DNA from: a virus
Lineage: Duplodnaviria; Heunggongvirae; Uroviricota; Caudoviricetes
Reading direction: 5' to 3' (one strand)
IMG/VR virus record: IMGVR_UViG_3300045988_133230
Length of the DNA: 60,892 bases
The notes under the pieces: generated by a model
The model's input: the letters and a program-made list of their open reading frames with translations, nothing else
What the model was told of the DNA's origin: nothing
The model's database searches: none
Program-made: the position numbers and the translations under genes
In this document: positions 909 to 29,133 of the stretch, one piece after another
How positions within the stretch are numbered: position 1 is the first letter of the stretch
Layout: every line of letters starts with the position of its first letter

Positions 909-1937
909 TCACATGACCTCGATAATCTTATTCACAAACTCCATGTTAATACTATCATAAGAATCCTTTAAGCGCGAAGAAAAACCATTTATTACACTCT
1001 TTTTGATAAATGTTTTTTCCAGCCCATCCAGCCTTACATTTGAAGTTTGAAGGTCAACTTGTCTTGTGAATCCTGTCTCTGGCTCTTTGAATTTTATTTT
1101 TATTAAGTCATAACCTCCATTTTTATCTTCTTTAAAGAAGTTTGAGACAGATTTTATCCATCCAAGGACATTGTTGGGGCCATGGTTTGGTACTAAGCGT
1201 AAAGTACTTTCTTTAGGAATAATAGCCGCGTTAACATCTGGCGCATTAATAGTTCTGTATTCATTCTTTACCAAAACGACATCAGAAAGTCCTTCTTTAT
1301 TTATTTTATTGAACAAATCTTCATCTAACTTTCCAGATATATCAAAGACTGGCTTGTATAATACTTTTATTTTTTTCTTTGTTAAACTTGATACTTCATT
1401 TGTTAAAGTGTTACATGAAAAGATATCTTCATTATCTTTGGCTACGTTAAAGAGAACTTTATTCAGGAAACCATTTATTTTTGCTGTGGAAACTCCTGGT
1501 ATTGGCATAAAACTCATGTCATACGTTCGCATATTTCCGTCTAGAGAAATAATCATATGAGAAGAAACTTCGTAACCTTCACCTTCCTCATGTTTTGGTG
1601 ATATTTCGGTGCGAACATCTGTATTAATGTTTTTTAATACAGTAGTGCTTCCATTTTTATCTACAGCATTAATTAAAAGACCAAGATGGCTGGGTTTTTT
1701 ATCGGCTCTGTTTGATAAGAATATTACATCTTGTAAAGTTAAAACTAAGTCTCCTTTTTCATAACTGTGCATCATTGCTTTACAATGTACTATTTTAGAA
1801 GCAAGTTCACGCATTGTTGGTACTGGGCAAACACAGTTCGATCTGATGCTATCATCAATTTTCTGTGTACGGTATTGTGTATCGATCGTAATAGTATGAT
1901 GAGTTATTACTCTACTGAATGCGTCCAGTGTAGCCAT
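909..1937 (-). CDS. hypothetical 342-aa soluble protein, first gene of cargo operon
   Basis: Long ORF in a visibly AT-rich block between Q and the late leader; no catalytic motif recognised; stop overlaps RBS of downstream gene. Confidence 0.6.
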   Translation of the reverse strand: MATLDAFSRVITHHTITIDTQYRTQKIDDSIRSNCVCPVPTMRELASKIVHCKAMMHSYEKGDLVLTLQDVIFLSNRADKKPSHLGLLINAVDKNGSTTVLKNINTDVRTEISPKHEEGEGYEVSSHMIISLDGNMRTYDMSFMPIPGVSTAKINGFLNKVLFNVAKDNEDIFSCNTLTNEVSSLTKKKIKVLYKPVFDISGKLDEDLFNKINKEGLSDVVLVKNEYRTINAPDVNAAIIPKESTLRLVPNHGPNNVLGWIKSVSNFFKEDKNGGYDLIKIKFKEPETGFTRQVDLQTSNVRLDGLEKTFIKKSVINGFSSRLKDSYDSINMEFVNKIIEVM

Positions 1938-1995
1938 TTCAAAATATCCGCTTCTTTGCTGTTTTTATATGGAGAAAGTTTACATAACCACTAAC

Positions 1996-2076
1996 GCGTA
2001 CGCAAAAACTATTGTATCGTGTTAAGAGTGGTTACTTCGCCACACAGCTTAAACCCGCCGTCGAGCGGGTTTTGTC
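1996..2076 (+). promoter_or_regulatory. late-operon leader (pR'/qut-like) with hairpin terminator 2051-2076
   Basis: About 80 bp near-identical to 45118-45196 upstream of the second lysis cassette; GC hairpin aaacccgc/gcgggttt followed by T-rich tract. Confidence 0.6.
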
Positions 2077-2224
2077 GTCTCTGGGGCTGGGGATTCGTTG
2101 GTCCTGGCCTATTCCGCAGTTATCCATTGGCTCGGCTTCTTTGACGTTTCCGCTTCTGATTTGCGGTACATGATGTTCCCTCAATTTGCACCTGCTGTAT
2201 CAGCGAGGTGAGAGATAACTACAA

Positions 2225-2551
2225 ATGCCTCATAACCCAAATACCTGGCTGGAGTTGGTCCAGAGCTGGTGGCGTGGAGACACACCACTGGGCGCAGTGA
2301 TTATGTCGATTGTTATGGCTGGATTGCGTATTGCCTATTTTGGCGGTGGTGGTGGGTGGAAGCGAAAAACGCTCGAGATTTTGCTCTGTGGTGCTCTGAC
2401 GCTGACTTTTGCATCCGCTCTTGAGTATGTCGGATGGCCTAAATCTCTTTCTGTTGCCATTGGTGGCGGTGTTGGGCTGATTGGTGTCGATGCAATTCGT
2501 GGGGCTGCAATGCGAGTAATCGGTAACAAATTTGGTAGCTCGAAGGAGTAA
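2225..2551 (+). CDS. S: holin, lambda S-like
   Basis: 108 aa, hydrophobic helices and charged C-terminus, directly upstream of endolysin. Confidence 0.8.
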   Translation: MPHNPNTWLELVQSWWRGDTPLGAVIMSIVMAGLRIAYFGGGGGWKRKTLEILLCGALTLTFASALEYVGWPKSLSVAIGGGVGLIGVDAIRGAAMRVIGNKFGSSKE

Positions 2552-2554
2552 TTT

Positions 2555-3031
2555 ATGCAGGCACTAAATTCCCAGCGTAAAGCTTTCCTCGATATGGTGG
2601 CATGGTCAGAAGGAACGGATAACGGACGGCAGAAAACCAGAAATCATGGTTATGACGTCATTGTAGGCGGAGAGCTATTTACTGATTACTCCGATCACCC
2701 TCGCAAACTTGTCACGCTAAACCCCAAACTCAAATCAACAGCCGCCGGACGTTATCAGCTTCTTTCACGCTGGTGGGATGCTTACCGTAAACAGCTTGGT
2801 TTGAAAAACTTCTCCCCCAAAAGCCAGGACGCAGTGGCATTGCAGCAGATTAAAGAGCGTGGCGCTTTACCGATGATTGATCGCGGTGATATCCGTCAGG
2901 CTATTGATCGTTGCAGCAATATCTGGGCGTCGTTACCTGGTGCAGGTTACGGTCAGTATGAACATAAAATCGGTGACCTGATTTCCCGGTTTAAAGAGGC
3001 TGGTGGGGTGGTAAATGAAGTTGAGCTATAA
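2555..3031 (+). CDS. R: endolysin, lambda R-like lytic transglycosylase
   Basis: 158 aa; N-terminal MxALNSQRKAFLDMxAWSEGTDNGRQKT matches lambda R from memory. Confidence 0.85.
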   Translation: MQALNSQRKAFLDMVAWSEGTDNGRQKTRNHGYDVIVGGELFTDYSDHPRKLVTLNPKLKSTAAGRYQLLSRWWDAYRKQLGLKNFSPKSQDAVALQQIKERGALPMIDRGDIRQAIDRCSNIWASLPGAGYGQYEHKIGDLISRFKEAGGVVNEVEL

Positions 3032-3449
3032 GCTGGTTATCTCTGCTTTCTTCGTTACTGTCATTGGTTCTTTCATCTGGTCAGCCAACCACTACTACAG
3101 CAAATATCAGTACGAAAAGAAACGTGCTGATGAAGCTGTACAAAATGCCAAATTGGCAACTGCCATTACCAATAACGTCCTGCAATCACTGCAAATTGTC
3201 AATACAGTACTGGAGGCTAACCAGCATGCAAAACAGCAGATCGCACTGGAGTCACAGAGAACCCAGGAAGATATCAAAATGGCTGTTGCGGATGATGATT
3301 GTGCTTCACGTCCTGTGCCTGCTGCCGCTGCTGACCGGTTGCGGAAGTACGCGGACAGTTTACGTAACAGTACCTCCAATTCCGCTTCCAGCTACTCTGA
3401 CTTTGGAAACACCAGTACCGCACATACCCGATACTCTGACCTATGGTGA
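3015..3449 (+). CDS. Rz: i-spanin Rz
   Basis: N-terminal TM then coiled-coil-like sequence; overlaps endolysin stop; contains embedded lipoprotein ORF. Confidence 0.75.
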   Translation: MKLSYKLVISAFFVTVIGSFIWSANHYYSKYQYEKKRADEAVQNAKLATAITNNVLQSLQIVNTVLEANQHAKQQIALESQRTQEDIKMAVADDDCASRPVPAAAADRLRKYADSLRNSTSNSASSYSDFGNTSTAHTRYSDLW

Positions 3450-3540
3450 CAGTCTGGAGTTGAATGTGAGTCTGATGTCAGCGTTGGAACAGTGTAATCT
3501 TGATAAAGCGACAATAAAAAATATCGACGCTAACAAGTAA
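3292..3540 (+). CDS. Rz1: o-spanin Rz1 lipoprotein (overlapping Rz in +1 frame)
   Basis: MMIVLHVLCLLPLLTGC lipobox followed by proline-rich sequence; start assigned by me at 3292. Confidence 0.55.
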   Translation: MMIVLHVLCLLPLLTGCGSTRTVYVTVPPIPLPATLTLETPVPHIPDTLTYGDSLELNVSLMSALEQCNLDKATIKNIDANK

Positions 3541-3602
3541 AAGGGCATGTAATTTCATAGAGATGATTCCATGTTAATATTGCTCTTTTAACTGGAGGTA
3601 TT

Positions 3603-4091
3603 ATGATTGATTGGAATATGTGGTCTGCTATTGGGGCTTGTGGTTCGGCTATCGCGTCTTTGGGGGCGTTGTGTTATGCACGCAAGGCGTTAAACACATG
3701 GAATAGACAAGAGCAATTTAAAGTAAAGTTAGAGTTTAAAAGAGCTTTACTTGAGCTGGAGGATGCCTTTGAGGCAATGCCCGATAATTGGGATTCCACA
3801 CAATATAGAATAGCTAAAACAAGAGTTAAACAGCAGTATAATGCTGTTGTTCACCGAGTTGATGATGAAGCACAACTATATTTCATGAAAGAAAACCTTG
3901 AATCAGCATACCAGAATGCAGTGAGAGCATGGGTTTTATGTGAAGGGGGGATTAAAGATAAAAGTATACATGATGAATGGAGACAACTCAGGACTGATTA
4001 TAGTCAATATATTCTGACTGGTGGAAATAAAAAGTGCTACTTATCAAAAATAGAAAAAATATATTCTAGAATTGTAGTGTTCATAGATTGA
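3603..4091 (+). CDS. hypothetical 162-aa protein with N-terminal membrane anchor
   Basis: AT-rich ORF between lysis and packaging genes; one N-terminal hydrophobic helix then helical soluble region. Confidence 0.5.
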   Translation: MIDWNMWSAIGACGSAIASLGALCYARKALNTWNRQEQFKVKLEFKRALLELEDAFEAMPDNWDSTQYRIAKTRVKQQYNAVVHRVDDEAQLYFMKENLESAYQNAVRAWVLCEGGIKDKSIHDEWRQLRTDYSQYILTGGNKKCYLSKIEKIYSRIVVFID

Positions 4092-4137
4092 TTTTTATAT
4101 GAGAGAGACAAGTACTCTCTCATTATGGATATTTTAC

Positions 4138-4488
4138 ATGCCACCACGAACCCCAAAAGCCTGCCGCGTTCGCGGCTGCCGCGATACCACTACTGATCCG
4201 TCAGGCTATTGCGAAAGCCACAAAAGCGAGGGCTGGAAGCAATACAAGCCAGGACAATCCCGTCATCAGCGCGGTTATGGTTCTAAGTGGGATGTTATTC
4301 GCGTGCGTGTGCTGCAACGTGACAAAGGCCTGTGTCAGTTATGTCTGCGTGCTGGTGTGGTACGTGAGGCGAAAACCGTTGACCACATCATTCCTAAAGC
4401 GCATGGCGGCACAGATGCCGACAGCAATCTGCAGAGTCTGTGCTGGCCGTGCCACAAGGCGAAGACGGCCCGTGAACGGCTAAAGTGA
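4138..4488 (+). CDS. HNH endonuclease (packaging-associated)
   Basis: CxxC...DHIIPKAHGG...N...CWPCH HNH motif; immediately upstream of terminase small subunit. Start taken at ATG 4138 (ORF track 4099). Confidence 0.75.
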   Translation: MPPRTPKACRVRGCRDTTTDPSGYCESHKSEGWKQYKPGQSRHQRGYGSKWDVIRVRVLQRDKGLCQLCLRAGVVREAKTVDHIIPKAHGGTDADSNLQSLCWPCHKAKTARERLK

Positions 4489-4613
4489 TAATAATTCTCA
4501 ACTGTCTGAGGGGAGGGGCGGGTCAAATCTCTGCGGCCTGACGTCTTCCGGACTGCCCGCCCCATCGTTTTTTTATACCCGCGAAAAATGAAATTTAACC
4601 AGGAGTGCCGCAT

Positions 4614-5108
4614 ATGGCTGGAACGGCGGGGCGTTCCGGGCGTCGCCCCAAGCCAACGGCGCGCAAGGCGCTGGCCGGAAACCCCGGCAAGCGAGCCCTG
4701 AATAAAGATGAACCTGTTTTTACGCCCATCAAAGGTGTTGAGCCACCGGAGTGGTTCGCTGAAGAAGATCTCCCTCTCGCCACGATCATGTGGCAACTGA
4801 CAACCAAAGAACTCTGCGGTCAGGGCCTGCTGTGCGTGACTGACCTCGCGGTGCTTGAGCGGTGGTGCGTGGCCTACGAGTTCTGGCGACGTGCCGTGAA
4901 AAATATTGCCATACAGGGCAACACCATCACCGGTGCAATGGGCGGCAGGGTCAAAAATCCGGAGCTGACCGCCAAAAAAGAACAGGAGTCCGAGATGAGC
5001 AGCACGGGGGCAATGCTCGGACTCGACCCCAGCAGCCGCCAGCGTCTGATTGGCCTGGCGGGGCAGAAGAAAGCCACTAACCCGTTTCTGAAAATCATCG
5101 AGTCATGA
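4614..5108 (+). CDS. terminase small subunit (P27-family like)
   Basis: Basic N-terminus [14 protein letters not shown]; AGGAG RBS 9 nt upstream of ATG 4614; overlaps large subunit start. Confidence 0.7.
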
Positions 5109-6838
5109 GCCGGAAATCTTACCCCAACGTAAATGCTGCCAATCAGTATGCCCGTGATGTTGTGCGCGGAAAGATTGTGGCCTGCCAGTTTGTGATTCAG
5201 GCCTGCCAGCGCCATCTTGATGACCTGATGGCGGAAAAAAGTAAGTCGTTTCGTTACCGCTTCGACAAGGACCTGGCTGAACGGGCCGCCAAATTTATTC
5301 AGCTGTTGCCGCACACCAAGGGTGAGTGGGCATTCAAGAGGATGCCCATCACGCTGGAGCCGTGGCAGCTATTTGTGGTCTGCTGTGCGTTTGGCTGGGT
5401 CAATAAAGGGTCCCGGCTGCGCCGCTTCCGGGAGGTGTATACCGAAATCCCCCGTAAGAACGGCAAATCGGCAATCTCTGCCGGTGTTGCCCTGTATTGT
5501 TTTGCCTGTGATAACGAGTTTGGCGCGGAAGTGTATTCCGGTGCCACGACAGAGAAACAGGCGTGGGAAGTCTTTCGCCCGGCGCGACTGATGTGTAAAC
5601 GCACACCCATGCTGACGGAAGCGTTCGGGATTGAGGTTAACGCCTCAAACATGAATCGTCCGGAGGATGGCGCGCGGTTTGAACCGCTGATCGGTAACCC
5701 CGGTGATGGTTCATCACCCCACTGTGCGGTGGTGGATGAATATCACGAGCACGCCACCGATGCGCTTTACACCACGATGCTTACCGGGATGGGGGCGCGA
5801 CGTCAGCCACTGATGTGGGCCATTACTACTGCCGGGTACAACATTGAGGGGCCGTGCTACGACAAGCGACGGGAAGTTATCGAGATGCTCAACGGGTCGG
5901 TACCCAACGATGAACTGTTCGGGATCATCTATACCGTTGACGAAGGCGATGACTGGACCGACCCGCAGGTGCTGGAAAAAGCTAACCCGAATATTGGCGT
6001 GTCGGTTTATCGCGAATTTTTGTTAAGTCAGCAGCAGCGTGCGAAAAATAACGCCCGTCTGGCAAACGTCTTTAAAACAAAACACCTCAATATCTGGGTG
6101 TCGGCGCGTTCGGCGTATTTCAACCTGGTGAGCTGGCAGAGCTGCGAGGATAAATCACTGACTCTTGAGCAGTTCGAGGGGCAGCCGTGCATTCTGGCCT
6201 TTGACCTGGCGCGTAAGCTGGATATGAACAGCATGGCGCGACTTTATACCCGCGAGATTGACGGTAAAACGCATTACTACAGTGTGGCCCCGCGTTTCTG
6301 GGTACCGTATGACACGGTGTACAGCGTCGAGAAAAATGAAGATCGCCGGACAGCCGAACGCTTTCAGAAATGGGTGGAAATGGGCGTTCTGACCGTTACC
6401 GATGGTGCGGAGGTGGATTATCGCTACATCCTCGAGGAGGCCAAAGCGGCGAACAAAATCAGTCCGGTCAGTGAGTCACCCATCGACCCCTTCGGGGCGA
6501 CCGGGTTGTCACATGACCTTGCTGATGAAGACCTGAACCCCATCACTATCATTCAGAACTACACCAACATGTCCGACCCGATGAAAGAGCTGGAAGCGGC
6601 AATTGAATCGGGGCGCTTTCATCATGATGGCAATCCCATCATGACCTGGTGTATTGGCAACGTGGTCGGCAAAACCATTCCGGGTAACGATGATGTGGTG
6701 AAGCCCGTCAAAGAGCAGGCGGAAAACAAAATCGATGGTGCAGTTGCGCTGATTATGGCGGTTGGCAGAGCCATGCTGTACGAGAAAGAAGACACGCTGT
6801 CTGACCACATTGAGTCCTATGGGATCCGCTCGCTTTAA
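5105..6838 (+). CDS. terminase large subunit
   Basis: 577 aa; ATPase and nuclease regions typical of HK97-type large terminases; position between small subunit and portal. Confidence 0.85.
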
Positions 6839-6849
6839 CTGAGGTAATT

Positions 6850-7032
6850 ATGATCATGCTGATTCTCGCGCCTCTGGTGGGCGTGCTGGGGGCGCTTTTG
6901 CTGGCGTATGGTGCCTGGCTGATTTATCCCCCGGCGGGGTTTGTTGTTGCCGGGGCGTTGTGCCTGTTCTGGTCGTGGCTGGTGGCGCGATATCTCGACC
7001 GTACACAGCCGTCTGTCGGCGGAGGTAAATAG
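6850..7032 (+). CDS. small hydrophobic protein
   Basis: 60-aa ORF with two hydrophobic segments between terminase and portal. Confidence 0.35.
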
Positions 7033-8273
7033 TGTTCTTTTCGGGATTATTTCAACGAAAAAGTGACGCACCGGTGACCACGCCAGCAGAGCTGGCGGAT
7101 GCCATCGGGTTGTCCTACGACACCTATACCGGAAAGCAGATCAGCAGTCAGCGGGCCATGCGACTGACGGCGGTTTTTTCCTGCATCAGAGTGCTGGCAG
7201 AGTCGGTCGGGATGTTGCCCTGCAATCTGTATCACCTGAATGGCAGCCTGAAGCAGAGAGCCACCGGCGAACGTCTGCATAAGCTGATCTCCACGCATCC
7301 CAATGGCTATATGACGCCGCAGGAGTTCTGGGAGCTGGTGGTCACCTGTCTGTGCCTGAGGGGAAACTTTTACGCCTACAAAGTGAAAGCATTTGGCGAA
7401 GTGGCTGAACTGCTGCCCGTCGATCCTGGCTGTGTGGTACCGAAGCTTAACAGTAGCTGGGAGCCGGTCTATCAGGTCACATTCCCGGACGGCTCCACGG
7501 ATGTGCTGAGCCAGGAGGATATCTGGCATGTGCGCACGCTGACGCTGGACGGACTGGTGGGGCTGAATCCCATCGCCTATGCCCGCGAGGCAATATCGCT
7601 GGCGGCAGCGACTGAAGAGCACGGGGCCAGACTGTTCAGCAATGGTGCGGTGACGTCGGGTGTGTTGCGTACAGAGCAGACGCTGTCAGATCAGGCTTAT
7701 GAGCGCCTGAAGAAAGATTTTGAGGAGCGTCACACCGGGCTTGGCAATGCTCACCGCCCGATGATCCTTGAGATGGGGCTGGACTGGAAGTCGATGGCGC
7801 TGAACGCCGAGGACAGCCAGTTCCTGGAAACCCGCAAGTTTCAGCTTGAAGAAATCTGTCGTCTGTTCCGGGTACCGTTGCACATGGTGCAGAACACCGA
7901 TCGCGCCACCTTCAACAATATCGAAGAACTGGGGCTCGGATTTATCAACTATTCACTGGTGCCGTATCTGACCCGCATCGAACAGCGGATCAACACCGGA
8001 CTGGTACGAAAAAGTAAGCAGGGCGTTTATTACGCCAAATTTAACGCCGGGGCGTTACTGCGCGGGGATATGAAGTCCCGTTTTGAAGCCTACGCCACCG
8101 GGATCAACTGGGGAATTTACTCTCCCAATGACTGCCGCGACCTGGAAGATATGAATCCGCGTCCCGGTGGTGATGTCTATCTCACACCGATGAACATGAC
8201 CACGAAACCCTCCGATGGCAGTAAAGCCGGTAAGCAGAAGGATAACGCCAATGCAGACGAAACAACGTCTTGA
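7032..8273 (+). CDS. portal protein (HK97 family)
   Basis: 413 aa; gene order terminase-portal-protease-capsid; GTG start after GGAGG. Confidence 0.8.
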   Translation: MFFSGLFQRKSDAPVTTPAELADAIGLSYDTYTGKQISSQRAMRLTAVFSCIRVLAESVGMLPCNLYHLNGSLKQRATGERLHKLISTHPNGYMTPQEFWELVVTCLCLRGNFYAYKVKAFGEVAELLPVDPGCVVPKLNSSWEPVYQVTFPDGSTDVLSQEDIWHVRTLTLDGLVGLNPIAYAREAISLAAATEEHGARLFSNGAVTSGVLRTEQTLSDQAYERLKKDFEERHTGLGNAHRPMILEMGLDWKSMALNAEDSQFLETRKFQLEEICRLFRVPLHMVQNTDRATFNNIEELGLGFINYSLVPYLTRIEQRINTGLVRKSKQGVYYAKFNAGALLRGDMKSRFEAYATGINWGIYSPNDCRDLEDMNPRPGGDVYLTPMNMTTKPSDGSKAGKQKDNANADETTS

Positions 8274-8901
8274 TGTACCGCTGAGTCTGAAATCTGTCAG
8301 TGACTCCGGTGAGTTTGAAGGGTATGGCTCCGTCTTTGGTGTAAAGGACAGCCACGATGATGTGGTGATGTCCGGGGCATTTGCTGCTTCCCTGCGGGCG
8401 TGGAGTGACAGAAAAGCGTTACCTGCGCTGCTCTGGCAGCACCGCATGGATGAACCCATCGGTGTTTACACCGAAATGAAGGAAGACGATGTCGGGCTTT
8501 ACGTCAGGGGACGGTTGCTTATTGATGATGATCCCCTCGCAAAACGCGCACATGCACACATGAAGGCCGGTTCGTTAACCGGCCTTTCTATTGGGTACGT
8601 CCTGAAAGACTGGGAATACGACCGGAGCAAAGAAGCCTTTCTGTTGAAAGAAATCGACCTCTGGGAAGTCAGCCTAGTGACGTTCCCGTCTAACGACGAG
8701 GCGCGGATCAGCGACGTCAAGAACGCACTGGCCCGCGGGGAAATCCCCGAACAGAAAAAAATCGAAAGAGTCCTGCGTGATGTCGGACTCTCCCGTACCC
8801 AGGCCAAAGCATTCATGGCCGGGGGCTATGGCGCACTGTCCCTGCGCGACGCTGAGGATGTGGGCTCTGCACTGAATGCACTGAAAAATCTGAACTTCTA
8901 A
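8251..8901 (+). CDS. prohead protease (HK97 family)
   Basis: Follows portal, precedes capsid; alternative upstream ATG at 8215. Confidence 0.7.
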   Translation: MQTKQRLDVPLSLKSVSDSGEFEGYGSVFGVKDSHDDVVMSGAFAASLRAWSDRKALPALLWQHRMDEPIGVYTEMKEDDVGLYVRGRLLIDDDPLAKRAHAHMKAGSLTGLSIGYVLKDWEYDRSKEAFLLKEIDLWEVSLVTFPSNDEARISDVKNALARGEIPEQKKIERVLRDVGLSRTQAKAFMAGGYGALSLRDAEDVGSALNALKNLNF

Positions 8902-8915
8902 TCAGGAGAAATACG

Positions 8916-10120
8916 ATGGCGGTTGATATTAAAGATGTCGAACAGGTCGCGCAGGAGCTGCAGCAGAAGTTTGACGACTTCAAAGCAAAGAACGACAAGC
9001 GCGTGGATGCGATTGAGCAGGAAAAAGGCAAACTTGCCGGGCAGGTGGAAACCCTGAACGGGAAACTCAGCGAGCTGGAAAACCTCAAAAGCGATCTTGA
9101 AAAAGAGCTGCTTGAGCTGAAACGTCCGGCAGGTGGAGCGCAAAATAAACTGGCCACCGAGCATAAAGAGGCGTTTGTGGGCTTCCTGCGTAAAGGCCGT
9201 GAAGACGGTCTGCGCGATCTGGAGCGTAAGGCATTGCAGGTGGGCACCGATGAAGACGGTGGCTACGCCGTGCCGGAAGAACTGGATCGCAACATTCTTA
9301 ACCTGCTGAAAGATGAAGTGGTGATGCGTCAGGAAGCCACGGTGATCACCGTTGGCGGTTCCGACTACAAAAAACTGGTGAATCTGGGCGGTACGGCTTC
9401 CGGATGGGTGGGGGAAACGGATACGCGATCCCAGACTGCCACCTCCAGACTGGAGCTGATTGAACCTCTCATGGGGGAAATCTACGGCAACCCGCAGGCT
9501 ACCCAGAAAATGCTGGACGATGCCTTCTTCAACGTGGAGGCCTGGATCAACAGCGAGCTGGCAACCGAATTTGCCGAACAGGAAGAAATTGCCTTTACCT
9601 CAGGCGATGGTACCAAGAAGCCGAAGGGTTCCTGGCGTATGAATCCACCGATGAAACCGATAAGGTCCGGGCGTTCGGCAAACTTCAGCATATTGTATCC
9701 GGCGAAGCGACGGGGGTGACCGCAGACGCCATTATCAAACTGATTTACACGCTGCGAAAGGCACACCGCACCGGCGCGAAGTTCATGATGAACAACAACA
9801 GCCTGTTTGCCATCCGTTTGCTGAAAGACACCGAGGGTAACTATCTGTGGCGTCCGGGGCTGGAACTGGGGCAGCCGTCCTCTCTGGCGGGTTACGGTAT
9901 CGCTGAAAACGAACAGATGCCGGATATCGCCGCTGATGCGAAAGCCATTGCATTTGGTAACTTCAAACGGGGTTACACCATCGTTGACCGTATCGGCACC
10001 CGCATTCTGCGCGACCCGTACACCAATAAACCGTTTGTCGGTTTTTATACCACCAAGCGCACCGGCGGGATGCTGGTCGATTCGCAGGCCATCAAACTGC
10101 TGAAGATTGCAGCGGCGTAA
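8916..10120 (+). pseudogene. major capsid protein (HK97 fold) interrupted by a 1-bp frameshift near 9629-9631
   Basis: ORFs 8916-9719 and 9716-10120 form one capsid gene; reading continues in the +1 frame through ggtt/cctgg where ggtttcctgg would keep frame (KKPKGFLAYESTDETDK...). Confidence 0.7.
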
Positions 10121-22048: not shown

Positions 22049-22477
22049 ATGTACGTATGGAGCGCTAAAGCAAATGGCTTTTTCCCCATATCGGAGAAAG
22101 AAAAATTTGAGGCATCAGGTCTGTGGCCTGATGATGGTGTAATAGTCAGTGAGGAAGAACATAAAAAGTTATTTATGGATATTCCACCAGGAAAACAGAT
22201 TGGAACACTGAATGGAAAACCAGCACTGATAGATATTCCTCAGCCGACCAAAAAGGAATTAATAGCTATTGCTGAAGTTAAAAAATCCCAATTACGGGAA
22301 AAGGCTGACAGTGAAATATCCTGGCGTCAGGATGCTGTTGATGCTGATATCGCAACTGATGAAGAAGCTACAACTCTCACCCAATGGAAGAAATACCGTG
22401 TGCTGCTGATGCGTGTTGATACGTCAACAGCACCCGATATTGAATGGCCTACGCCTCCGGCAGTTCAGGCCAGATGA
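22049..22477 (+). CDS. tail fibre assembly protein
   Basis: 142 aa with C-terminal TSTAPDIEWP motif shared with the convergent copy. Confidence 0.7.
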   Translation: MYVWSAKANGFFPISEKEKFEASGLWPDDGVIVSEEEHKKLFMDIPPGKQIGTLNGKPALIDIPQPTKKELIAIAEVKKSQLREKADSEISWRQDAVDADIATDEEATTLTQWKKYRVLLMRVDTSTAPDIEWPTPPAVQAR

Positions 22478-23042: not shown

Positions 23043-23524
23043 TATTTAGCCCTCACCAGAAAGTTAAATGCAATATTTCGCGGTCTGACAGCAACAAAAT
23101 TCACACCATCACCCACAGAGTTACTGGTGAAATTAAATCGTGAAAATCCTGGCTGATTTCCGGCGATGCCATCATGAAAGTTAATTGCGTGTCCCGCACC
23201 TTCGCCTATATTCCCGGCAAACTGAGAAAAGTTTGTAGCTGCCTGCCAGCTTAATAATTCGCGACCACCATCTGCACCTCGCCCGTCATCCCAGACACGA
23301 ATGAAATCACCGCGTGCGTCAGGTAATGCCAACGCCGGAAACACTTTCGCCAGCACAGGGTAATCAGTGGCAGAAAATTTCGCCCCGTTGAACTTCAAAA
23401 ACACCATACTGGACCAGCTGTCGATTACAGTATTTGGCATTGCAGCGGACGCCCAGAAGAACGGAACGCCAATAGCTGGAGCACCTTCTCCCAAACTGCG
23501 ATGGCTCACTGCTGATATGTGCAA
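23042..23524 (-). CDS. alternative tail fibre C-terminal segment (promoterless variable tip)
   Basis: Begins ...SLGEGAP matching the junction residues of the plus-strand fibre; inverted 17-bp identity at 23480-23496. Confidence 0.6.
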   Translation of the reverse strand: MHISAVSHRSLGEGAPAIGVPFFWASAAMPNTVIDSWSSMVFLKFNGAKFSATDYPVLAKVFPALALPDARGDFIRVWDDGRGADGGRELLSWQAATNFSQFAGNIGEGAGHAINFHDGIAGNQPGFSRFNFTSNSVGDGVNFVAVRPRNIAFNFLVRAK

Positions 23525-23718
23525 TCGACGGGGAGTTCAGGATCAAGCGATATCGGACTCATCCTCAACACCACCTGATTAATTTGGAGAGCGGGAGAAG
23601 GGAGATGCTACCAGTAGATGATGACGGTTACGGTTCTGCTCCCGCGATATTCGGGGTGATTACTTACATCATTAATGATGCGAGGAACGCGGAGTTTGAT
23701 GATTGTCCGGTGATGTAA

Positions 23719-24387
23719 TCATATTGGCGTTATTAGTTCGGCGCCCTGATTTTTCACATTCCCGACGGCACGCGTTACGGCGTGCCATATAAATTTATCA
23801 GCCGGTACAACACCGTCGGCTGCAATTTCCGCTGCTTCTTTCCCTCCAACATCCTGCCTCATCCATTCACGCGCGGCTTCCGGTAGCAGTACCAGTGGTC
23901 GTCTGTCGTGAATATCAACCAGTCCTTTGTCAGCTGCAGCTGTAACTATCAGGAAACCTTCTGCTTCATCTCCACGTTCGAATGGTGTGCTGCCGATCGC
24001 CGCCATAAAAATCGGCTGACCGTCTGCCCGGTGAATAAAGTAGGGTTGTTTTTGGTCGCCTTCCTTTTTCCACTCATACCATCCATCAGCAAAGCAAATT
24101 GCGCGGCCATGCTGCCAGAGTGGTTTAAACATTCTGCTGGTGGCAGCAGTTTCAGACCGTGCATTAATGAGCGGCGGTTTATCCCACCAACCGGGGGCGT
24201 ATCCCCAGATAACTGGATCAAGATGCAACTGCTCATCACGTTCGCTCAGAAGCAGAACTTTTGTTCCTGGCGCTACGTTGAATCTTCCGATGGGTTCTGG
24301 ATCGTATGGAATATCGCGTTCTGATTCATCAGCGAGAAGGGCAAGATAATCTTCACGGGTCATTGACTGTGAAAAGCGTCCACACAT
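23719..24387 (-). CDS. SOS response-associated peptidase (SRAP/YedK family)
   Basis: 222 aa starting MCGRF with catalytic Cys2; family features recognisable by eye. Confidence 0.8.
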   Translation of the reverse strand: MCGRFSQSMTREDYLALLADESERDIPYDPEPIGRFNVAPGTKVLLLSERDEQLHLDPVIWGYAPGWWDKPPLINARSETAATSRMFKPLWQHGRAICFADGWYEWKKEGDQKQPYFIHRADGQPIFMAAIGSTPFERGDEAEGFLIVTAAADKGLVDIHDRRPLVLLPEAAREWMRQDVGGKEAAEIAADGVVPADKFIWHAVTRAVGNVKNQGAELITPI

Positions 24388-24586
24388 AGAAACCTCCAGC
24401 CGTATGTCAGACTGAAAGTATAGGGCAGTTAGAAAAAGTGGTGCACACCGTTAAAGATTTAAAAGGAGCATGTAAGGTAAATCGGAATGATGGTTTTGTG
24501 AATTGATGAATTCCGAAAGTGAAAAAGATACTTAATCATTGTGTGCTAGCGATACGGGGGCAACATTTGACGGGGTTTTTCCCCTG

Positions 24587-24708
24587 TAATTCCCCATTGC
24601 TTCCCCGTTCAGAAAACAGGCAAAAAAACCAGCCGTAACAGGCTGGTTCTTCGAGGATTTTTGGTCGGCACGAGAGGATTTGAACCTCCGCCCCCCGACA
24701 CCCCATAG
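24587..24708. repeat. 122-bp direct repeat copy 1 (tRNA 3' fragment plus terminator)
   Basis: About 97 percent identical to 25757-25879 by manual alignment. Confidence 0.85.
24662..24708 (-). other. tRNA-Pro-like 3' fragment (att-type remnant, not a complete gene)
   Basis: Reverse complement reads ...GGAGGTTCAAATCCTCTCGTGCCGACCA: T-arm, G72, A73 discriminator, CCA; no D-arm or 5' acceptor strand present. Confidence 0.65.
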
Positions 24709-24784: not shown

Positions 24785-25600
24785 TCACATACGGATAAAA
24801 TTTTTTCTATTGATTTTGTCTCTATCAGAGCCATAAATGATGGTTGCAAAAAAACGACCTAATTCAAGATGGTGGAAGTGATTATCTTTTGCTTGAACTG
24901 TCATTGAGTCTAATATGTTATAGATGCATTCTATGATATGAATAACTAATAAAGTGCGATAACCAGCAAGCATTTCACTTCTTTTAAGTAAATAATTTAA
25001 ATCCCCTGCAGAGTTTATATGGTTTCTGTCTTCATCATAATATCCAAGCACATAGCATGGCAGTGTTTCACCATAGCTTCGGTATTGCTCGCATTTTTTA
25101 TCAATTATATTTTTTTGTCTTTTTGTTAATATTTTATCGTAAATGCTCTTATCGATTTCATTATACCATTGCTTCATGGGATCATTGTCGTTGTCATTAG
25201 TAATGAAATCAATATTACTATATCTTGATGAATTTGCAAAATTAGTTAACAACTCCATCACTCTGTAGTGAATTTCATTTAAGCCAGAGGGAGAATCAAC
25301 TCTCTCAATGACTAGGTTGAATAACTTGCTTAAGTTATGACCGTAATCTCTTAATTTTTTGCGTGATGTATATTTTCCATTTTTATTATAATCATCAAGC
25401 ATAAGGCAAAGTTTCATAAGCCTTTCTAATCCTAAACTGATGCCGGATAATGCTTGAAAATACAATCCTCTACTTGCAAAATTTGCTTTCCTTAGGGAAG
25501 TGAGCCCTATGCCTAATAATTGTCTTGAAAAGTCAACCTCATCAACAAATCTTCTGTATTTTTCATCCATAAAAACCTCAGTCAGCCAATTAATATTCAA
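24785..25600 (-). CDS. hypothetical 271-aa protein (cargo, possible abortive-infection type)
   Basis: AT-rich ORF lying between the two 122-bp direct repeats; no recognisable motif. Confidence 0.55.
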   Translation of the reverse strand: MNINWLTEVFMDEKYRRFVDEVDFSRQLLGIGLTSLRKANFASRGLYFQALSGISLGLERLMKLCLMLDDYNKNGKYTSRKKLRDYGHNLSKLFNLVIERVDSPSGLNEIHYRVMELLTNFANSSRYSNIDFITNDNDNDPMKQWYNEIDKSIYDKILTKRQKNIIDKKCEQYRSYGETLPCYVLGYYDEDRNHINSAGDLNYLLKRSEMLAGYRTLLVIHIIECIYNILDSMTVQAKDNHFHHLELGRFFATIIYGSDRDKINRKNFIRM

Positions 25601-25756: not shown

Positions 25757-25879
25757 TAATTTCCCCATTGCTTCCCCGTTCAGAAAACAGGCAAAAAAAA
25801 CCAGCCGTAACAGGCTGGTTCTTCGAGGATTTTTGGTCAGCACGAGAGGATTTGAACCTCCGCCCCCGACACCCCATAG
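25757..25879. repeat. 122-bp direct repeat copy 2, includes tRNA-Pro-like 3' fragment 25834-25879
   Basis: See copy 1; four point or length differences. Confidence 0.85.
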
Positions 25880-26073: not shown

Positions 26074-27042
26074 CTAGAATGATGCACAATCTTTAAGCTC
26101 TTTTTCTAGTTGTTCAACCAAGTCACAGCATTTTTTGATAACATCTTTAACTGACTCTGAATCTAACTTATGAAAATTACCATTTTTTGTTTTACCTGCT
26201 CGATGAACTAAGTCATGCCTAATTAACACGCTTTTATAAACTTCTGTGAAAACAGGGAATTTAATACCAAAGGTATCTCGATACATGCCACTTACTTTTG
26301 GCAGATTATGATAAAGAACACTCTTCATAGACTCTATCGCTTGAGACTCTATTTGTTCATGCCTTATAAATAATTCAGAAAGTAAGAATTTTTCTGTATT
26401 GTAATCTTTGAAGGTTTCAACAAAATTTCTCAAATTAGTTTGGCTACCATGAATTAGGGAAATAAATCTGTCACATAAATATGTTTCCAAGGAAGTTATT
26501 GTATTGGCATATAGCATATACGACATTTGTATTTGTAAAGTGCTATCAATTTTTAACTGAGCATCATTTAGTTTTATGGCGTTCTGCATACTATTTTGGA
26601 ATGTCATATAGACATCTCGTTCAGATAGCGTTCGATCATCAGAGTACTGCATATCAATAACATCTAGAATGCGCTGTTCAATTAATGAAGGTCTATTCAA
26701 CTGTAATATATCTATAGTCGCATGTCCTCGCTCAGTTAAACCTTCTAAATATCCATTTTTATTTTGTTTTATATGTTCTGAAAAACTTTCATTTAAAGGA
26801 TTTAGAAGTAATGGTTTGCCATTTTCATCGAGAGGAAACTGATCTTTTTTAATCATGCTACATGCCTTACAAGCGATGAGCAGGTTGTCTGTAGCATCTT
26901 GGAAGTCAGTATACTTTGATTTTGGGAAAAAACGATCAACATCCGCCATCAATGGTTCATAAAGTTTAGTGCCACAGTAAGCACATTGATGCTTAAACTT
27001 CTCCCATAGTTCAAGTTTAAACGTTTTATAATTCTTATTCAT
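26074..27042 (-). CDS. HNH-domain protein, 322 aa (N-terminal HNH-like nuclease, C-terminal unknown domain)
   Basis: CAYCG...DVDRFFPKSKY...NLLIACKACS resembles a Zn-finger HNH core; AT-rich; located where e14 carries mcrA. Confidence 0.6.
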   Translation of the reverse strand: MNKNYKTFKLELWEKFKHQCAYCGTKLYEPLMADVDRFFPKSKYTDFQDATDNLLIACKACSMIKKDQFPLDENGKPLLLNPLNESFSEHIKQNKNGYLEGLTERGHATIDILQLNRPSLIEQRILDVIDMQYSDDRTLSERDVYMTFQNSMQNAIKLNDAQLKIDSTLQIQMSYMLYANTITSLETYLCDRFISLIHGSQTNLRNFVETFKDYNTEKFLLSELFIRHEQIESQAIESMKSVLYHNLPKVSGMYRDTFGIKFPVFTEVYKSVLIRHDLVHRAGKTKNGNFHKLDSESVKDVIKKCCDLVEQLEKELKDCASF

Positions 27043-27486: not shown

Positions 27487-27651
27487 CTGCTGCGCCATAT
27501 GGGCTGGACTGAAGCCGCAGACCTGATTGTTAAAGGTATGGAAGGCGCGATCAACGCGAAAACCGTAACCTATGACTTCGAACGTCTGATGGAAGGCGCT
27601 AAACTGCTGAAATGTTCAGAGTTTGGTGACGCGATCATCAAGAACATGTAA
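27487..27651 (+). pseudogene. icd: icd 3' fragment (duplicated attachment segment, icdC-like)
   Basis: Encodes ...[53 protein letters not shown], the C-terminus of isocitrate dehydrogenase; upstream sequence is unrelated and AT-rich. Confidence 0.85.
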
Positions 27652-27717
27652 TCTCTACATGTGTTAAATATTGAAACGGGCGTATAACACGCCCGTTGTT
27701 TTATGATGATGTAAAAT

Positions 27718-27753
27718 CTTCCCCAAAACTTTCCCCAAAACCCTTCCCCAAAA
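27718..27753. repeat. three tandem TTCCCCAAAAC repeats (candidate integrase arm-type sites)
   Basis: Direct repeats between icd fragment/terminator hairpin (27674-27700) and int stop. Confidence 0.5.
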
Positions 27754-27764
27754 CTGGCTATTTT

Positions 27765-28907
27765 CTATGCTGTTTTGATATCTACGATAATCCAGTCTTT
27801 ACCACGATCATCATTGTATCGGTCGGTCATTTTTCTGGATTTATGGCCTAACAACTTTTGCGTATCCAGACCCTGTTCCCGATATAACCGTTCTGACAGA
27901 GATCGCTGCTCATGAAATGTGGGCGCAGTTCCTTGCTCCCATTTTATGCCACATTTTTCCCTGGCCTTTTTAAAAGCCGTTGTCAGAGTATTCGCAGAAA
28001 CCTGGTCTCCTCTGTTTGCTTGAGAGGTTGTGTGACGGTAATGGACCAGATATTTACTAACAACAGCATCCCTGCACTGAGATATAACTTCACGAAGGGT
28101 AATATTCAGAGCATCGCATTTCAGGTTAAGCGGAATAGCAAGTTTTGAACCGGTTTTTTCCTGAGTAATGTGCAACATGTCGTCCCAGATATCAGAGAAT
28201 TTCAAATTGCAGATATCGCCTAAACGTTGTCCAGTGACAAGAGCAAGTAGCATCCCACATTTTAAATAGGGCTGCCGTCTGCTTACGCTGTCAAATATTG
28301 CCTGCCATTCGGGCAGTGATAATCTTTGGCGGTTTACTCGATTTCGCGGTTGTTTTGTTGCCTGCGCTGGGTTAAATCCTGGCGGAACATGTCCTGCGTG
28401 TTGTGCTTCTTTGAAGACGTCGATTAACACCATTCTCACGACTTGCGCCATCCTGTTATGACCTTCAGCCTTTACAGCATCAATTATTTCGGCAATATCA
28501 AGTGCGGTAATATCCTTGAGGTGTTGCATTCCACAATGCTCACGGAAAAGACGAATGGGTTTGCCTTTTTGCCGATAGGAGTTGGGTCTTAGTTCATTAT
28601 GTTGCAGCCTGTCCTCCTGGATAGAAATATATTTATCAAGCCATTCTGTCACCGTAATGTCTGAGCGCCTGCCTTTCATTCTTTCCAGACGCTCATTGAC
28701 GCTTAATATTTGTCGGGTACGTTGTTCAGCAATAATGATATTTGCTTCAGTAGCAACTTGTTTTGCTTCATTCTCATCAGTTCCTAAGCTATGAAAACGA
28801 CCGGATAGTGGATGTTTGTATTGCCAATATACCTTTCCGGTTCGCTTATCTAATTTGCAATATAAATTGGGTATAGAGATTTTGTGAGATCGGGGTCTAG
28901 CAGCCAT
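27765..28907 (-). CDS. int: tyrosine integrase (e14 IntE-like, icd-targeting)
   Basis: 380 aa with C-terminal R...HxxR...Y catalytic region (LLGHKSRKMTDRY); adjacent to icd fragment. Confidence 0.9.
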   Translation of the reverse strand: MAARPRSHKISIPNLYCKLDKRTGKVYWQYKHPLSGRFHSLGTDENEAKQVATEANIIIAEQRTRQILSVNERLERMKGRRSDITVTEWLDKYISIQEDRLQHNELRPNSYRQKGKPIRLFREHCGMQHLKDITALDIAEIIDAVKAEGHNRMAQVVRMVLIDVFKEAQHAGHVPPGFNPAQATKQPRNRVNRQRLSLPEWQAIFDSVSRRQPYLKCGMLLALVTGQRLGDICNLKFSDIWDDMLHITQEKTGSKLAIPLNLKCDALNITLREVISQCRDAVVSKYLVHYRHTTSQANRGDQVSANTLTTAFKKAREKCGIKWEQGTAPTFHEQRSLSERLYREQGLDTQKLLGHKSRKMTDRYNDDRGKDWIIVDIKTA

Positions 28908-29133
28908 CAGCGATTATCCGTTGGAGTTTTGGGTTTGCGTTTATTGGGAGTTGCGGTTCTGCAAGCGTTCCTACAAAACGGGAATTTCGGTCAATCATCC
29001 AGTAGCGACCAACTTTTATAGCGGGTGGGGCCATCATTTTCCCTTGCGCGTATTTTTTCAGAACTCGCTCACTTGGTGCTAAGTCCCCAAATTCTTCTTT
29101 AGCCCAGTCCTGTAAAGTGATTAGTCGAGACAT
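28897..29133 (-). CDS. xis: excisionase
   Basis: 78 aa, overlaps int start; MSRLITLQDW... Xis-like winged helix. Confidence 0.7.
   Translation of the reverse strand: MSRLITLQDWAKEEFGDLAPSERVLKKYAQGKMMAPPAIKVGRYWMIDRNSRFVGTLAEPQLPINANPKLQRIIADGC

Follow-up and report, generated by a model that had tools for sequence, protein, structure and literature searches.

A PtuB-type HNH domain joined to a HEPN domain in the cargo slot of an e14-like prophage: a candidate single-protein defense factor

To our knowledge, PtuB, the HNH protein of Septu and type I-A retrons, is otherwise known to work only with the PtuA ATPase. Here we describe a 322-amino-acid (aa) protein that almost certainly joins a PtuB-type zinc-finger HNH domain to a RiboL-PSP-type HEPN domain with an intact Rx4H motif, an assignment made from sequence comparison and a structure model. 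Its gene lies near the end of an e14-like prophage in IMG/VR record IMGVR_UViG_3300045988_133230 (Caudoviricetes), the whole 60,892-nucleotide (nt) stretch of which was analyzed and is called the window below. On balance, we favor the reading that it is a stand-alone cargo protein of two modules acting as a single-protein abortive-infection defense, with the HEPN domain as effector and the HNH module as sensor or binder.

In the PtuB of Retron-Eco7, residues 1 to 152 form the HNH domain, with a Cys4 zinc finger and the catalytic His57, and residues 153 to 216 form a domain that docks onto PtuA; an H57A mutant and a Cys-to-Ala mutant each abolish Retron-Eco7 defense (PMC12673091). For HNH domains of this type, degradation of phage DNA has been reported in Septu and degradation of host tRNA-Tyr, in vivo, in Retron-Eco7 (PMC12673091). 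RAZR (PD-T7-4), the ring-activated zinc-finger RNase, takes its specificity from an N-terminal zinc-finger domain, which binds portal or recombinase rings of the phage; its divergent C-terminal HEPN domain cleaves single-stranded RNA nonspecifically and leads to abortive infection (PMC13017515). RAZR sits on mobile elements beside integrases (PMC13017515, PMC9519451). DS-33 (working name “GNAT”), from the DefensePredictor study, is a validated two-gene anti-phage system of Escherichia coli (PMC13092281) that protects by 3 to 4.7 logs against T7, T3, and Bas26 and gives almost no T7 protection as a delta-HEPN construct (PMC13092281 supplements). The DefensePredictor tables also label PD-T4-2_B as a RiboL-PSP-HEPN protein (PMC13092281), and in the strain it comes from, PD-T4-2 gives protection against T4 (PMC9519451). 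Anantharaman et al. 2013 (PMC3710099) defined the Ribo L-PSP-HEPN family, which they treat as distant kin of AbiF/AbiD with predicted mRNA cleavage, and HEPN fusions to HNH and other DNase domains appear in that paper as a recurring theme.

The features of the gene in the window are given below, where A1 denotes an alignment of 30 family members that includes the 322-aa protein.

26074 to 27042, minus strand: coding sequence of the PtuB-like HNH and HEPN fusion, 322 aa, ATG start, stop codon included (open reading frame [ORF] list)
26563 to 27042, minus strand: predicted PtuB-type HNH domain, aa 1 to 160, a zinc-finger beta-beta-alpha-Me core with a helical extension
26833 to 26991, minus strand: HNH core, aa 18 to 70, with putative Cys4 zinc ligands C20, C23, C58, and C61 and with N53, all invariant in A1
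26932 to 26934, minus strand: codon 37, CGT (Arg), at the HNH general-base His position; CAC (His) in the Serratia ortholog
26857 to 26859, minus strand: codon 62, AGC (Ser), where the consensus is Asn (CxxCN); AAC (Asn) in the Serratia ortholog
26083 to 26550, minus strand: predicted HEPN domain of the RiboL-PSP-HEPN family (PF18735), aa 165 to 320
26200 to 26220, minus strand: HEPN Rx4H catalytic motif RHDLVHR (R275...H280), aa 275 to 281, read from the sequence

The ORF is as the first-pass annotation had described it in position, strand, and length, AT-rich and with the quoted motifs CAYCG (C20 and C23), DVDRFFP (with R37), and IACKAC (C58 and C61) all present. Its guanine-plus-cytosine (GC) content is 0.324, and the GC profile puts the block of about 3 kb around it at 0.31 to 0.34, versus 0.5 to 0.6 in the prophage structural genes. 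An identical protein (WP_032162444.1) is annotated in E. coli strain C1, where the Prokaryotic Genome Annotation Pipeline (PGAP) labels it “HNH endonuclease,” and matching loci at 99.4 to 99.6% identity occur in eight complete E. coli genomes. About 60 homologs were found, with identity down to about 37%, and the protein-collection cluster of the protein holds 64 sequences. Measured against the 83%-identical Serratia ortholog, the ratio of nonsynonymous to synonymous substitution rates (dN/dS) is 0.20 overall and 0.19 in the HEPN half; the value of 0.35 for the HNH core comes from 72 codons only and is suggestive, not decisive, of weaker constraint there than in the HEPN half. Because it has homologs, a dN/dS of 0.20, and an identical annotated protein in strain C1, we conclude from these comparisons that the ORF is a real gene under purifying selection and not a chance ORF. 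A terminator scan found nothing above chance. The AlphaFold2 model of the protein has a mean predicted local distance difference test score of 86.7.

The N-terminal 160 aa correspond to the HNH domain of Retron-Eco7 PtuB (residues 1 to 152). PADLOC PtuB models match aa 6 to 156, with expect values (E) down to 1.1e-23, and a PDB profile search with the 30 family members retrieved the PtuB structures of Septu, Retron-Eco7/Ec78, and retron I-A over profile positions 5 to 158. The protein has both a beta-beta-alpha-metal fold with a Cys4 zinc knuckle and homology to the PtuB HNH domain that takes in the helical extension, and many of its homologs hold precomputed PF01844 or PF13395 matches. An HNH-like core built on Cys pairs had been noticed at the N terminus in the first-pass annotation, and the CxxC pairs C20/C23 and C58/C61 together with the PtuB-model matches uphold it. 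The HNH_4 hidden Markov model, which that annotation had named as a check, does align to aa 20 to 70 (E 0.034), but at 14.5 bits it stays under the Pfam cutoff of 22. Its view of the remaining ~230 C-terminal aa as a region of unknown function has to be given up, since they comprise the rest of the PtuB-type HNH domain and a HEPN domain with an intact Rx4H motif.

R275, H276, D277, V279, H280, R281, and G283 are invariant in A1, and among 126 distant relatives of the C-terminal domain H276, H280, R281, and G283 are invariant and R275 and D277 are at least 90% conserved; every homolog with its C terminus included has an RHDLVHR-type motif. The C-terminal half has the all-alpha HEPN fold. The Pfam HEPN_RiboL-PSP profile aligns to aa 166 to 317 over positions 23 to 190 of its 191 (E 0.011), PF18735 is matched by 68 of the 126 distant relatives (best E 3.3e-12), and many close homologs hold precomputed PF18735 matches. 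When aa 130 to 322 were searched with phmmer against 1.84 billion cluster representatives, 1,388 relatives passed a limit of E ≤ 1e-3, of which 756 also passed E ≤ 1e-10. The domain is C-terminal in almost every protein longer than about 200 aa among the 150 matches listed. The N termini to which it is attached vary and include HEPN/RES-NTD1, HNH, HEPN/Toprim-N, HARE-HTH, winged-helix, zinc-ribbon, and NTPase (nucleoside triphosphatase) domains. In one such relative, from Sediminicola luteus (locus L044, 6001 to 6876), the HNH domain gives way to zinc-ribbon-like CxxC...CxxC motifs; this is a further zinc-binding N-terminal module on the same effector and a layout that recalls RAZR.

The family consensus of the HNH site in A1 reads ..IEHFxPKS..DNLL..CxxCNxIK, the canonical D/E-H...N...N with the Cys4 set, and Arg37 aligns to the IEHF motif of PtuB. 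Residue 37 is His in 28 of the 29 other A1 members, in agreement with the earlier remark that the first His of a classical HNH site is replaced here. Residue 62, which on a spacing comparison with SpCas9 we take to be the metal-ligand position of the H-N-N/H motif, is less conserved (S, Y, D, C, or H in about six other members), and N53 is invariant. At columns conserved at 85% or more, the protein departs from its family only by H37R, P45T, and F308L, the last of which also occurs in close relatives. H37R, P45T, and Ser62 are common to all E. coli copies examined; among close relatives, His37 is replaced only in the E. coli allele. With the general-base His changed to Arg and the putative metal-ligand Asn changed to Ser, the HNH module of this allele is probably catalytically dead, and the label “HNH endonuclease” is misleading for it.

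About 44 of 51 full-length family members keep the His. Elsewhere it is replaced by Gln (P0013, P0045, and Algoriphagus) or Arg (Minicystis rosea), and Faecalimonas has no matching His; it appears to have been lost independently in several lineages besides E. coli. All of these His-less lineages keep the four cysteines and, wherever the C terminus is included, the HEPN motif. A HEPN site that every full-length copy keeps, a zinc site that is never lost, and HNH catalysis that is mostly retained but repeatedly dispensable together point to HEPN as the obligatory effector of the family. The HNH module would then keep a structural, binding, or sensing role after loss of catalysis.

Two further features mark the surroundings of the gene at the prophage end.

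27499 to 27651, plus strand: icd 3' fragment, a 50-aa ORF (ORF translation), the attachment (att)-site duplicate that bounds the prophage to the right of the 322-aa gene
24785 to 25600, minus strand: AT-rich neighbor, also cargo; 271 aa when read from a TTG start, 261 aa in its annotation (WP_032162445.1)

Strain C1 has, in order, YmfQ, tail fibers, pinE, DinI, an S24 peptidase (frameshifted), SRAP (split by the insertion sequence IS421), a 261-aa hypothetical protein, the 322-aa gene, the icd fragment (a partial isocitrate/isopropylmalate dehydrogenase according to PGAP), and the chromosomal genes ymgL/ycgX/bluR. K-12 has ymfQ, stfP, tfaP, tfaE, stfE, pinE, mcrA, icdC at the position of the icd fragment, and iraM/ymgL/ycgX/bluR. 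By this gene order, the 322-aa gene fills the attR-proximal cargo slot of an e14-like prophage, where K-12 e14 has mcrA, and the placement beside the icd fragment proposed in the first-pass annotation stands.

The 271-aa neighbor always co-occurs with the 322-aa gene in E. coli. It had no tblastn match at 13 non-E. coli homolog loci from four other lineages, its own homologs occupy P2-like prophages without an HNH-HEPN gene, and hhalign found no relationship between its family and the HNH-HEPN family. It is a HEPN-fold protein in its own right and no conserved partner of the 322-aa gene, and an obligate two-gene system is rejected on the basis of its absence from the 13 other loci and its own P2-like contexts.

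A 119-nt direct repeat (copies at 24590 to 24708 and 25761 to 25879, which differ by two single-base indels and one substitution) flanks the 271-aa gene, and one copy separates this gene from the 322-aa gene. On the minus strand, each copy holds the 3' 47 nt of tRNA-Pro (anticodon loop through CCA), then its terminator hairpin and about 35 nt more; ARAGORN found no complete tRNA in the window. The repeats look like att-site remnants of an element that integrates at proL. Window positions 23719 to 24708, which span the SRAP (SOS-response-associated peptidase, YedK-like) gene and the sequence downstream up to the first tRNA-Pro fragment, match the SRAP-proL junction beside yejM in E. coli GE3 at about 92% identity; in GE3 a Y-family DNA polymerase gene follows SRAP. 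This match suggests import of the SRAP module, with the end of an element integrated at proL as its source. The prophage end can be read as a stack of three att-proximal cargo modules: a proL fragment accompanies SRAP in the first and the 271-aa HEPN gene in the second, and the icd fragment accompanies the HNH-HEPN gene in the third. The stack holds two distinct HEPN-fold genes, set between att-site remnants.

To the left of these modules, about 200 nt (23524 to 23719) lie between the inverted tail-fiber genes and SRAP and hold no pin-sized ORF; at the same point, strain C1 and K-12 have pinE, and C1 also has DinI and the S24 peptidase. The invertible tail-fiber segment may be frozen in this strain. 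In the tail-fiber assembly gene region, the Rfam model “IS009” aligns in full to 22245 to 22428 on the plus strand, with 47.8 bits versus a gathering threshold of 117 (E 1.3e-8). To the right, a second, lambdoid prophage begins after the icd fragment and its terminator (27675 to 27697), which gives tandem prophages at icd, a layout repeated in other E. coli assemblies (L015-L017 and L020). It has a lambda-type integrase (27765 to 28907), a small ORF (28897 to 29133) that matches the Exc (excisionase) gene of related loci, and a YqaJ-type exonuclease, with exo/RecT-type and Gam-type genes beyond the integrase and xis; its related loci also have RecT, Gam, and KilR genes. Between the icd-fragment terminator and the integrase 3' end, positions 27713 to 27755 hold three tandem TTCCCCAAAAC-like units spaced by about 12 to 13 nt. 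These TTCCCCAAAAC-like units could be arm-type integrase binding sites of the attL of the second prophage.

Homologs of the 322-aa gene occur in other settings. The Serratia homolog (83% identity) stands at the end of a P4-like satellite, in the order Ogr/Delta, AlpA, Ash, DUF5375, alpha-primase, DUF6404, and HNH-HEPN gene, beyond which lies either an integrase fragment with type I restriction-modification (R-M) genes or the chromosomal flank. We considered the P4 psu-int hotspot of Rousset et al. for this site and rejected it because the gene follows the alpha-primase, at the other element end; we therefore call it element-terminal cargo only. In Vibrio parahaemolyticus (L006-L009, positions ~1500 to 10000), the homolog is in a run of small unrelated ORFs split by mini-ORFs of 29 to 30 aa, always with an unannotated 406-aa ORF directly upstream, and the region looks like a chromosomal integron cassette array. 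In Pantoea ananatis, a lambdoid prophage carries the homolog, with the cI/DUF1317 region on one side and xis-int on the other, and the homolog of the P0009 lineage adjoins an integrase in an island that also holds SIR2 and HerA-like genes. The neighboring genes differ in every one of these contexts.

Of 185,579 species-representative genomes, only about 5 have a full-length copy, yet these span Pseudomonadota, Bacteroidota, Myxococcota, Saccharibacteria, and Firmicutes. Searches of phage and plasmid collections found no full-length homolog; there, the HEPN module occurs with other N termini. A stand-alone accessory gene that moves horizontally, typically one for defense, would be expected to show such a distribution. 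A stand-alone candidate defense nuclease with an N-terminal zinc-knuckle HNH, borne on a mobile element, is what the first-pass annotation had put forward, and the varied cargo contexts agree with it. The competing case that it named, a homing endonuclease with a flanking target gene, was looked for in the same loci; we reject it given the lack of any conserved target gene, the varying contexts, the cargo positions, and the HEPN fusion.

Genomic context and domain precedent make a defense role for the protein fairly likely. We propose that it is an abortive-infection or inter-phage-competition defense factor carried as mobile-element cargo. By analogy with HEPN biology, RAZR, and DS-33, the HEPN domains of at least two protomers would pair into a composite RNase site that stays off until infection, and we infer both the dimerization and the RNase activity from these parallels. 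On infection, the HEPN site would cut cellular and phage RNA and so halt translation, and the PtuB-like zinc-finger module would bind a phage trigger or nucleic acid and gate the RNase. The E. coli HNH module would no longer cut and would act by zinc-dependent binding or gating only. In most other family members, an intact HNH domain may add DNA cleavage, or tRNA cleavage as in retron PtuB; it could act on either nucleic acid because PtuB-type HNH domains are reported to target DNA in Septu and tRNA-Tyr in Retron-Eco7. With the general base lost, the effector would likely be an RNase, which would make restriction of modified DNA an unlikely phenotype.

A McrA-like type IV restriction enzyme, in which the HNH domain would cut modified phage DNA and the C-terminal region would read the modification, would suit a gene in the slot that holds mcrA in K-12, and the PADLOC mREase_IV model does match aa 19 to 123 (E 2.3e-11). 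That match, however, is confined to the HNH part that the proteins have in common and falls far short of the PtuB matches. BLASTP against EcoKMcrA aligns only 28 core residues (E 0.15), Arg replaces the general-base His in the E. coli allele, and the C-terminal half, a HEPN fold in which the Rx4H motif is invariant, is not a modified-base reader. With no more than the HNH core (about 30 residues) in common by BLASTP and fold ranking, we reject a relationship to McrA, and the McrA-like reading of the first-pass annotation, which we now consider very improbable, did not survive the comparison. We give as little credence to a toxin of an addiction or toxin-antitoxin module that stabilizes the prophage, possibly paired with the 271-aa HEPN-fold neighbor. 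The two genes are always together in E. coli, but the neighbor is missing from all 13 of the non-E. coli homolog loci and has separate contexts in P2-like prophages, an att-like repeat stands between the two genes in the window, and no MNT (nucleotidyltransferase) or other conserved small partner adjoins the Serratia, Vibrio, Pantoea, or P0009 homologs. A fully active dual nuclease, in which the HNH domain still cuts DNA or tRNA through another residue or through Arg37 alongside HEPN, is unlikely but harder to dismiss. PtuB-type HNH domains can target DNA (Septu) or tRNA-Tyr in vivo (Retron-Eco7) (PMC12673091). Since most members (the ~44 of 51 that keep the His, with N53 and the Cys4 set invariant) have a canonical HNH site, the ancestral protein probably had two active nucleases, and the E. 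coli core, with a dN/dS of 0.35, is still partly constrained. The H840A change inactivates the HNH nuclease of SpCas9. Substitution of the general-base His in general inactivates HNH nucleases, as with PtuB H57A (PMC12673091), and the E. coli core also has N62S and P45T.

Several observations weigh against the favored reading, and some of them would suit a decaying relic, that is, a nonfunctional E. coli copy that hitchhikes at the prophage end. Among 5,426 complete E. coli genomes, only 8 have the whole 3.3-kb locus, and the E. coli lineage evolves about 2-fold faster than its sister clade (relative-rate test, chi-square 3.9 to 5.1); with the loss of the catalytic His and the conserved Pro45 (H37R and P45T), this could mean that the E. 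coli copy is degenerating. Debris of att sites also surrounds the gene, and in C1 IS-disrupted and frameshifted genes lie around it. The HEPN_RiboL-PSP score of 16 bits is below the gathering threshold of 28.4, and the domain call leans on homologs and the predicted fold. The upstream promoter scan gave no signal above chance (7 sites versus 12.7 expected), and literature searches, DefensePredictor supplements included, found neither an experiment on this protein or architecture nor a name for it. Nevertheless, a relic seems to us improbable. The ORF is intact, identical in strain C1, and part of a cluster of 64 sequences; every invariant HEPN residue is retained, and the dN/dS of 0.20 versus the Serratia gene indicates purifying selection. 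The excess E. coli substitutions are spread across all three segments of the protein and are not concentrated in the HNH core. Other His-less lineages also keep intact ORFs, and loss of the His is therefore tolerated and by itself no sign of gene death.

If the abortive-infection protein that we favor does defend, it would be a compact single-gene system made from two well-known defense modules, and the attR-proximal slot of e14-type prophages would be a swap site for unrelated defense-type cargo. Each module is known in defense, and as far as we found, their combination in one 322-aa protein is new to published tests. The His-retaining Serratia allele (83% identical) and the His-lacking E. 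coli allele make the role of a noncutting HNH domain testable. Many such candidates exist; what distinguishes this one is a PtuB module without PtuA and natural alleles with and without the catalytic His. A more speculative idea, which we hold to be possible but on the doubtful side, is that a Septu/retron-type HNH domain was freed from PtuA, fused to HEPN, and repeatedly turned into a dead zinc-finger sensor. The E. coli H37R allele would in that event be the natural dead-HNH form, in which the PtuB-like module recognizes a nucleic acid or protein of phage origin and thereby permits RNA cleavage by HEPN; the protein would be kin to Septu but work as one polypeptide, without PtuA, and with RNase activity as its output.

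Among described systems, PtuB (Septu and type I-A retrons; TIGR02646/NF041761) has the Cys4 zinc site and the IEHF-type motif in common with the 322-aa protein, the latter as family consensus. The differences are that Arg occupies the catalytic His position in the E. coli allele and that HEPN stands in place of the PtuA-docking three-helix C-terminal domain (residues 153 to 216 of PtuB, PMC12673091). No Walker-A ORF or PtuA-like ATPase lies within about 6 kb of the gene in the window, no ATPase is annotated nearby in strain C1, and the Vibrio, Pantoea, and P0009 homologs have none next to them; the Serratia loci do contain an AAA_21 gene, which lies about 2.4 kb off on the opposite strand, beside the type I R-M genes, and does not adjoin the HNH-HEPN gene. 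Rfam found no retron or other relevant RNA family in the window, no tRNA genes are present, and the NCBIfam matches are far under their cutoffs (NF041761, 32.7 bits versus 150; TIGR02646, 17.7 versus 52.15). With no PtuA, no docking domain, no retron RNA, and scores under the family cutoffs, Septu or retron membership is rejected. PADLOC v2.0.0 matches only the PtuB-like half, and with that half alone and no PtuA nearby, we would not expect defense-finding tools to call Septu.

EcoKMcrA is encoded in the same cargo slot of an e14-type prophage, at attR, and also has a zinc-knuckle HNH motif. Its HNH, which is C-terminal and preceded by a domain that binds modified cytosine, is active, with a His-His pair (EVHHVIP), whereas the 322-aa protein has Arg there and a HEPN RNase domain, and the two differ in domain order and partner domains. 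RAZR is analogous in its layout of an N-terminal zinc-binding domain and a C-terminal HEPN RNase on one polypeptide. Its HEPN is DUF4145, for which the 322-aa protein has no Pfam match at E ≤ 1, its zinc finger is not described as an HNH domain, and no PD-T7-4 model is among the 25 PADLOC matches listed for the whole protein; as far as this can be tested by sequence, the protein is not a RAZR homolog.

Among validated systems, DS-33 has a relative of the C-terminal half: the HEPN domain of its 320-aa component (WP_014639476.1) is homologous (28% identity over 181 columns, E 6e-13) and has the motifs LYxNxITxLET and RxxLVHRxGK in common with it. The N-terminal half of that protein is unrelated and has no HNH domain, and the second DS-33 gene (WP_000354965.1) was not found in the window (best tblastn E 0.22). 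A PADLOC search with the C-terminal half alone (E ≤ 10) gave only a weak RTasHEPN match (E 0.019) and no PD-T4-2 model. In the treatment of the Ribo L-PSP-HEPN family within the sections of PMC3710099 drawn on here, the founding members are fused to endoRNase L-PSP or are in operons with ParB, a PtuB-type HNH fusion is not listed, and AbiD/AbiF (Abi_2)-related HEPN proteins are distant relatives of the family. On these comparisons, the 322-aa protein is not a member of Septu/PtuB and is not McrA, RAZR, or DS-33; within the HEPN superfamily it belongs to the RiboL-PSP-HEPN family, and it also carries an HNH fold with a degenerate catalytic site.

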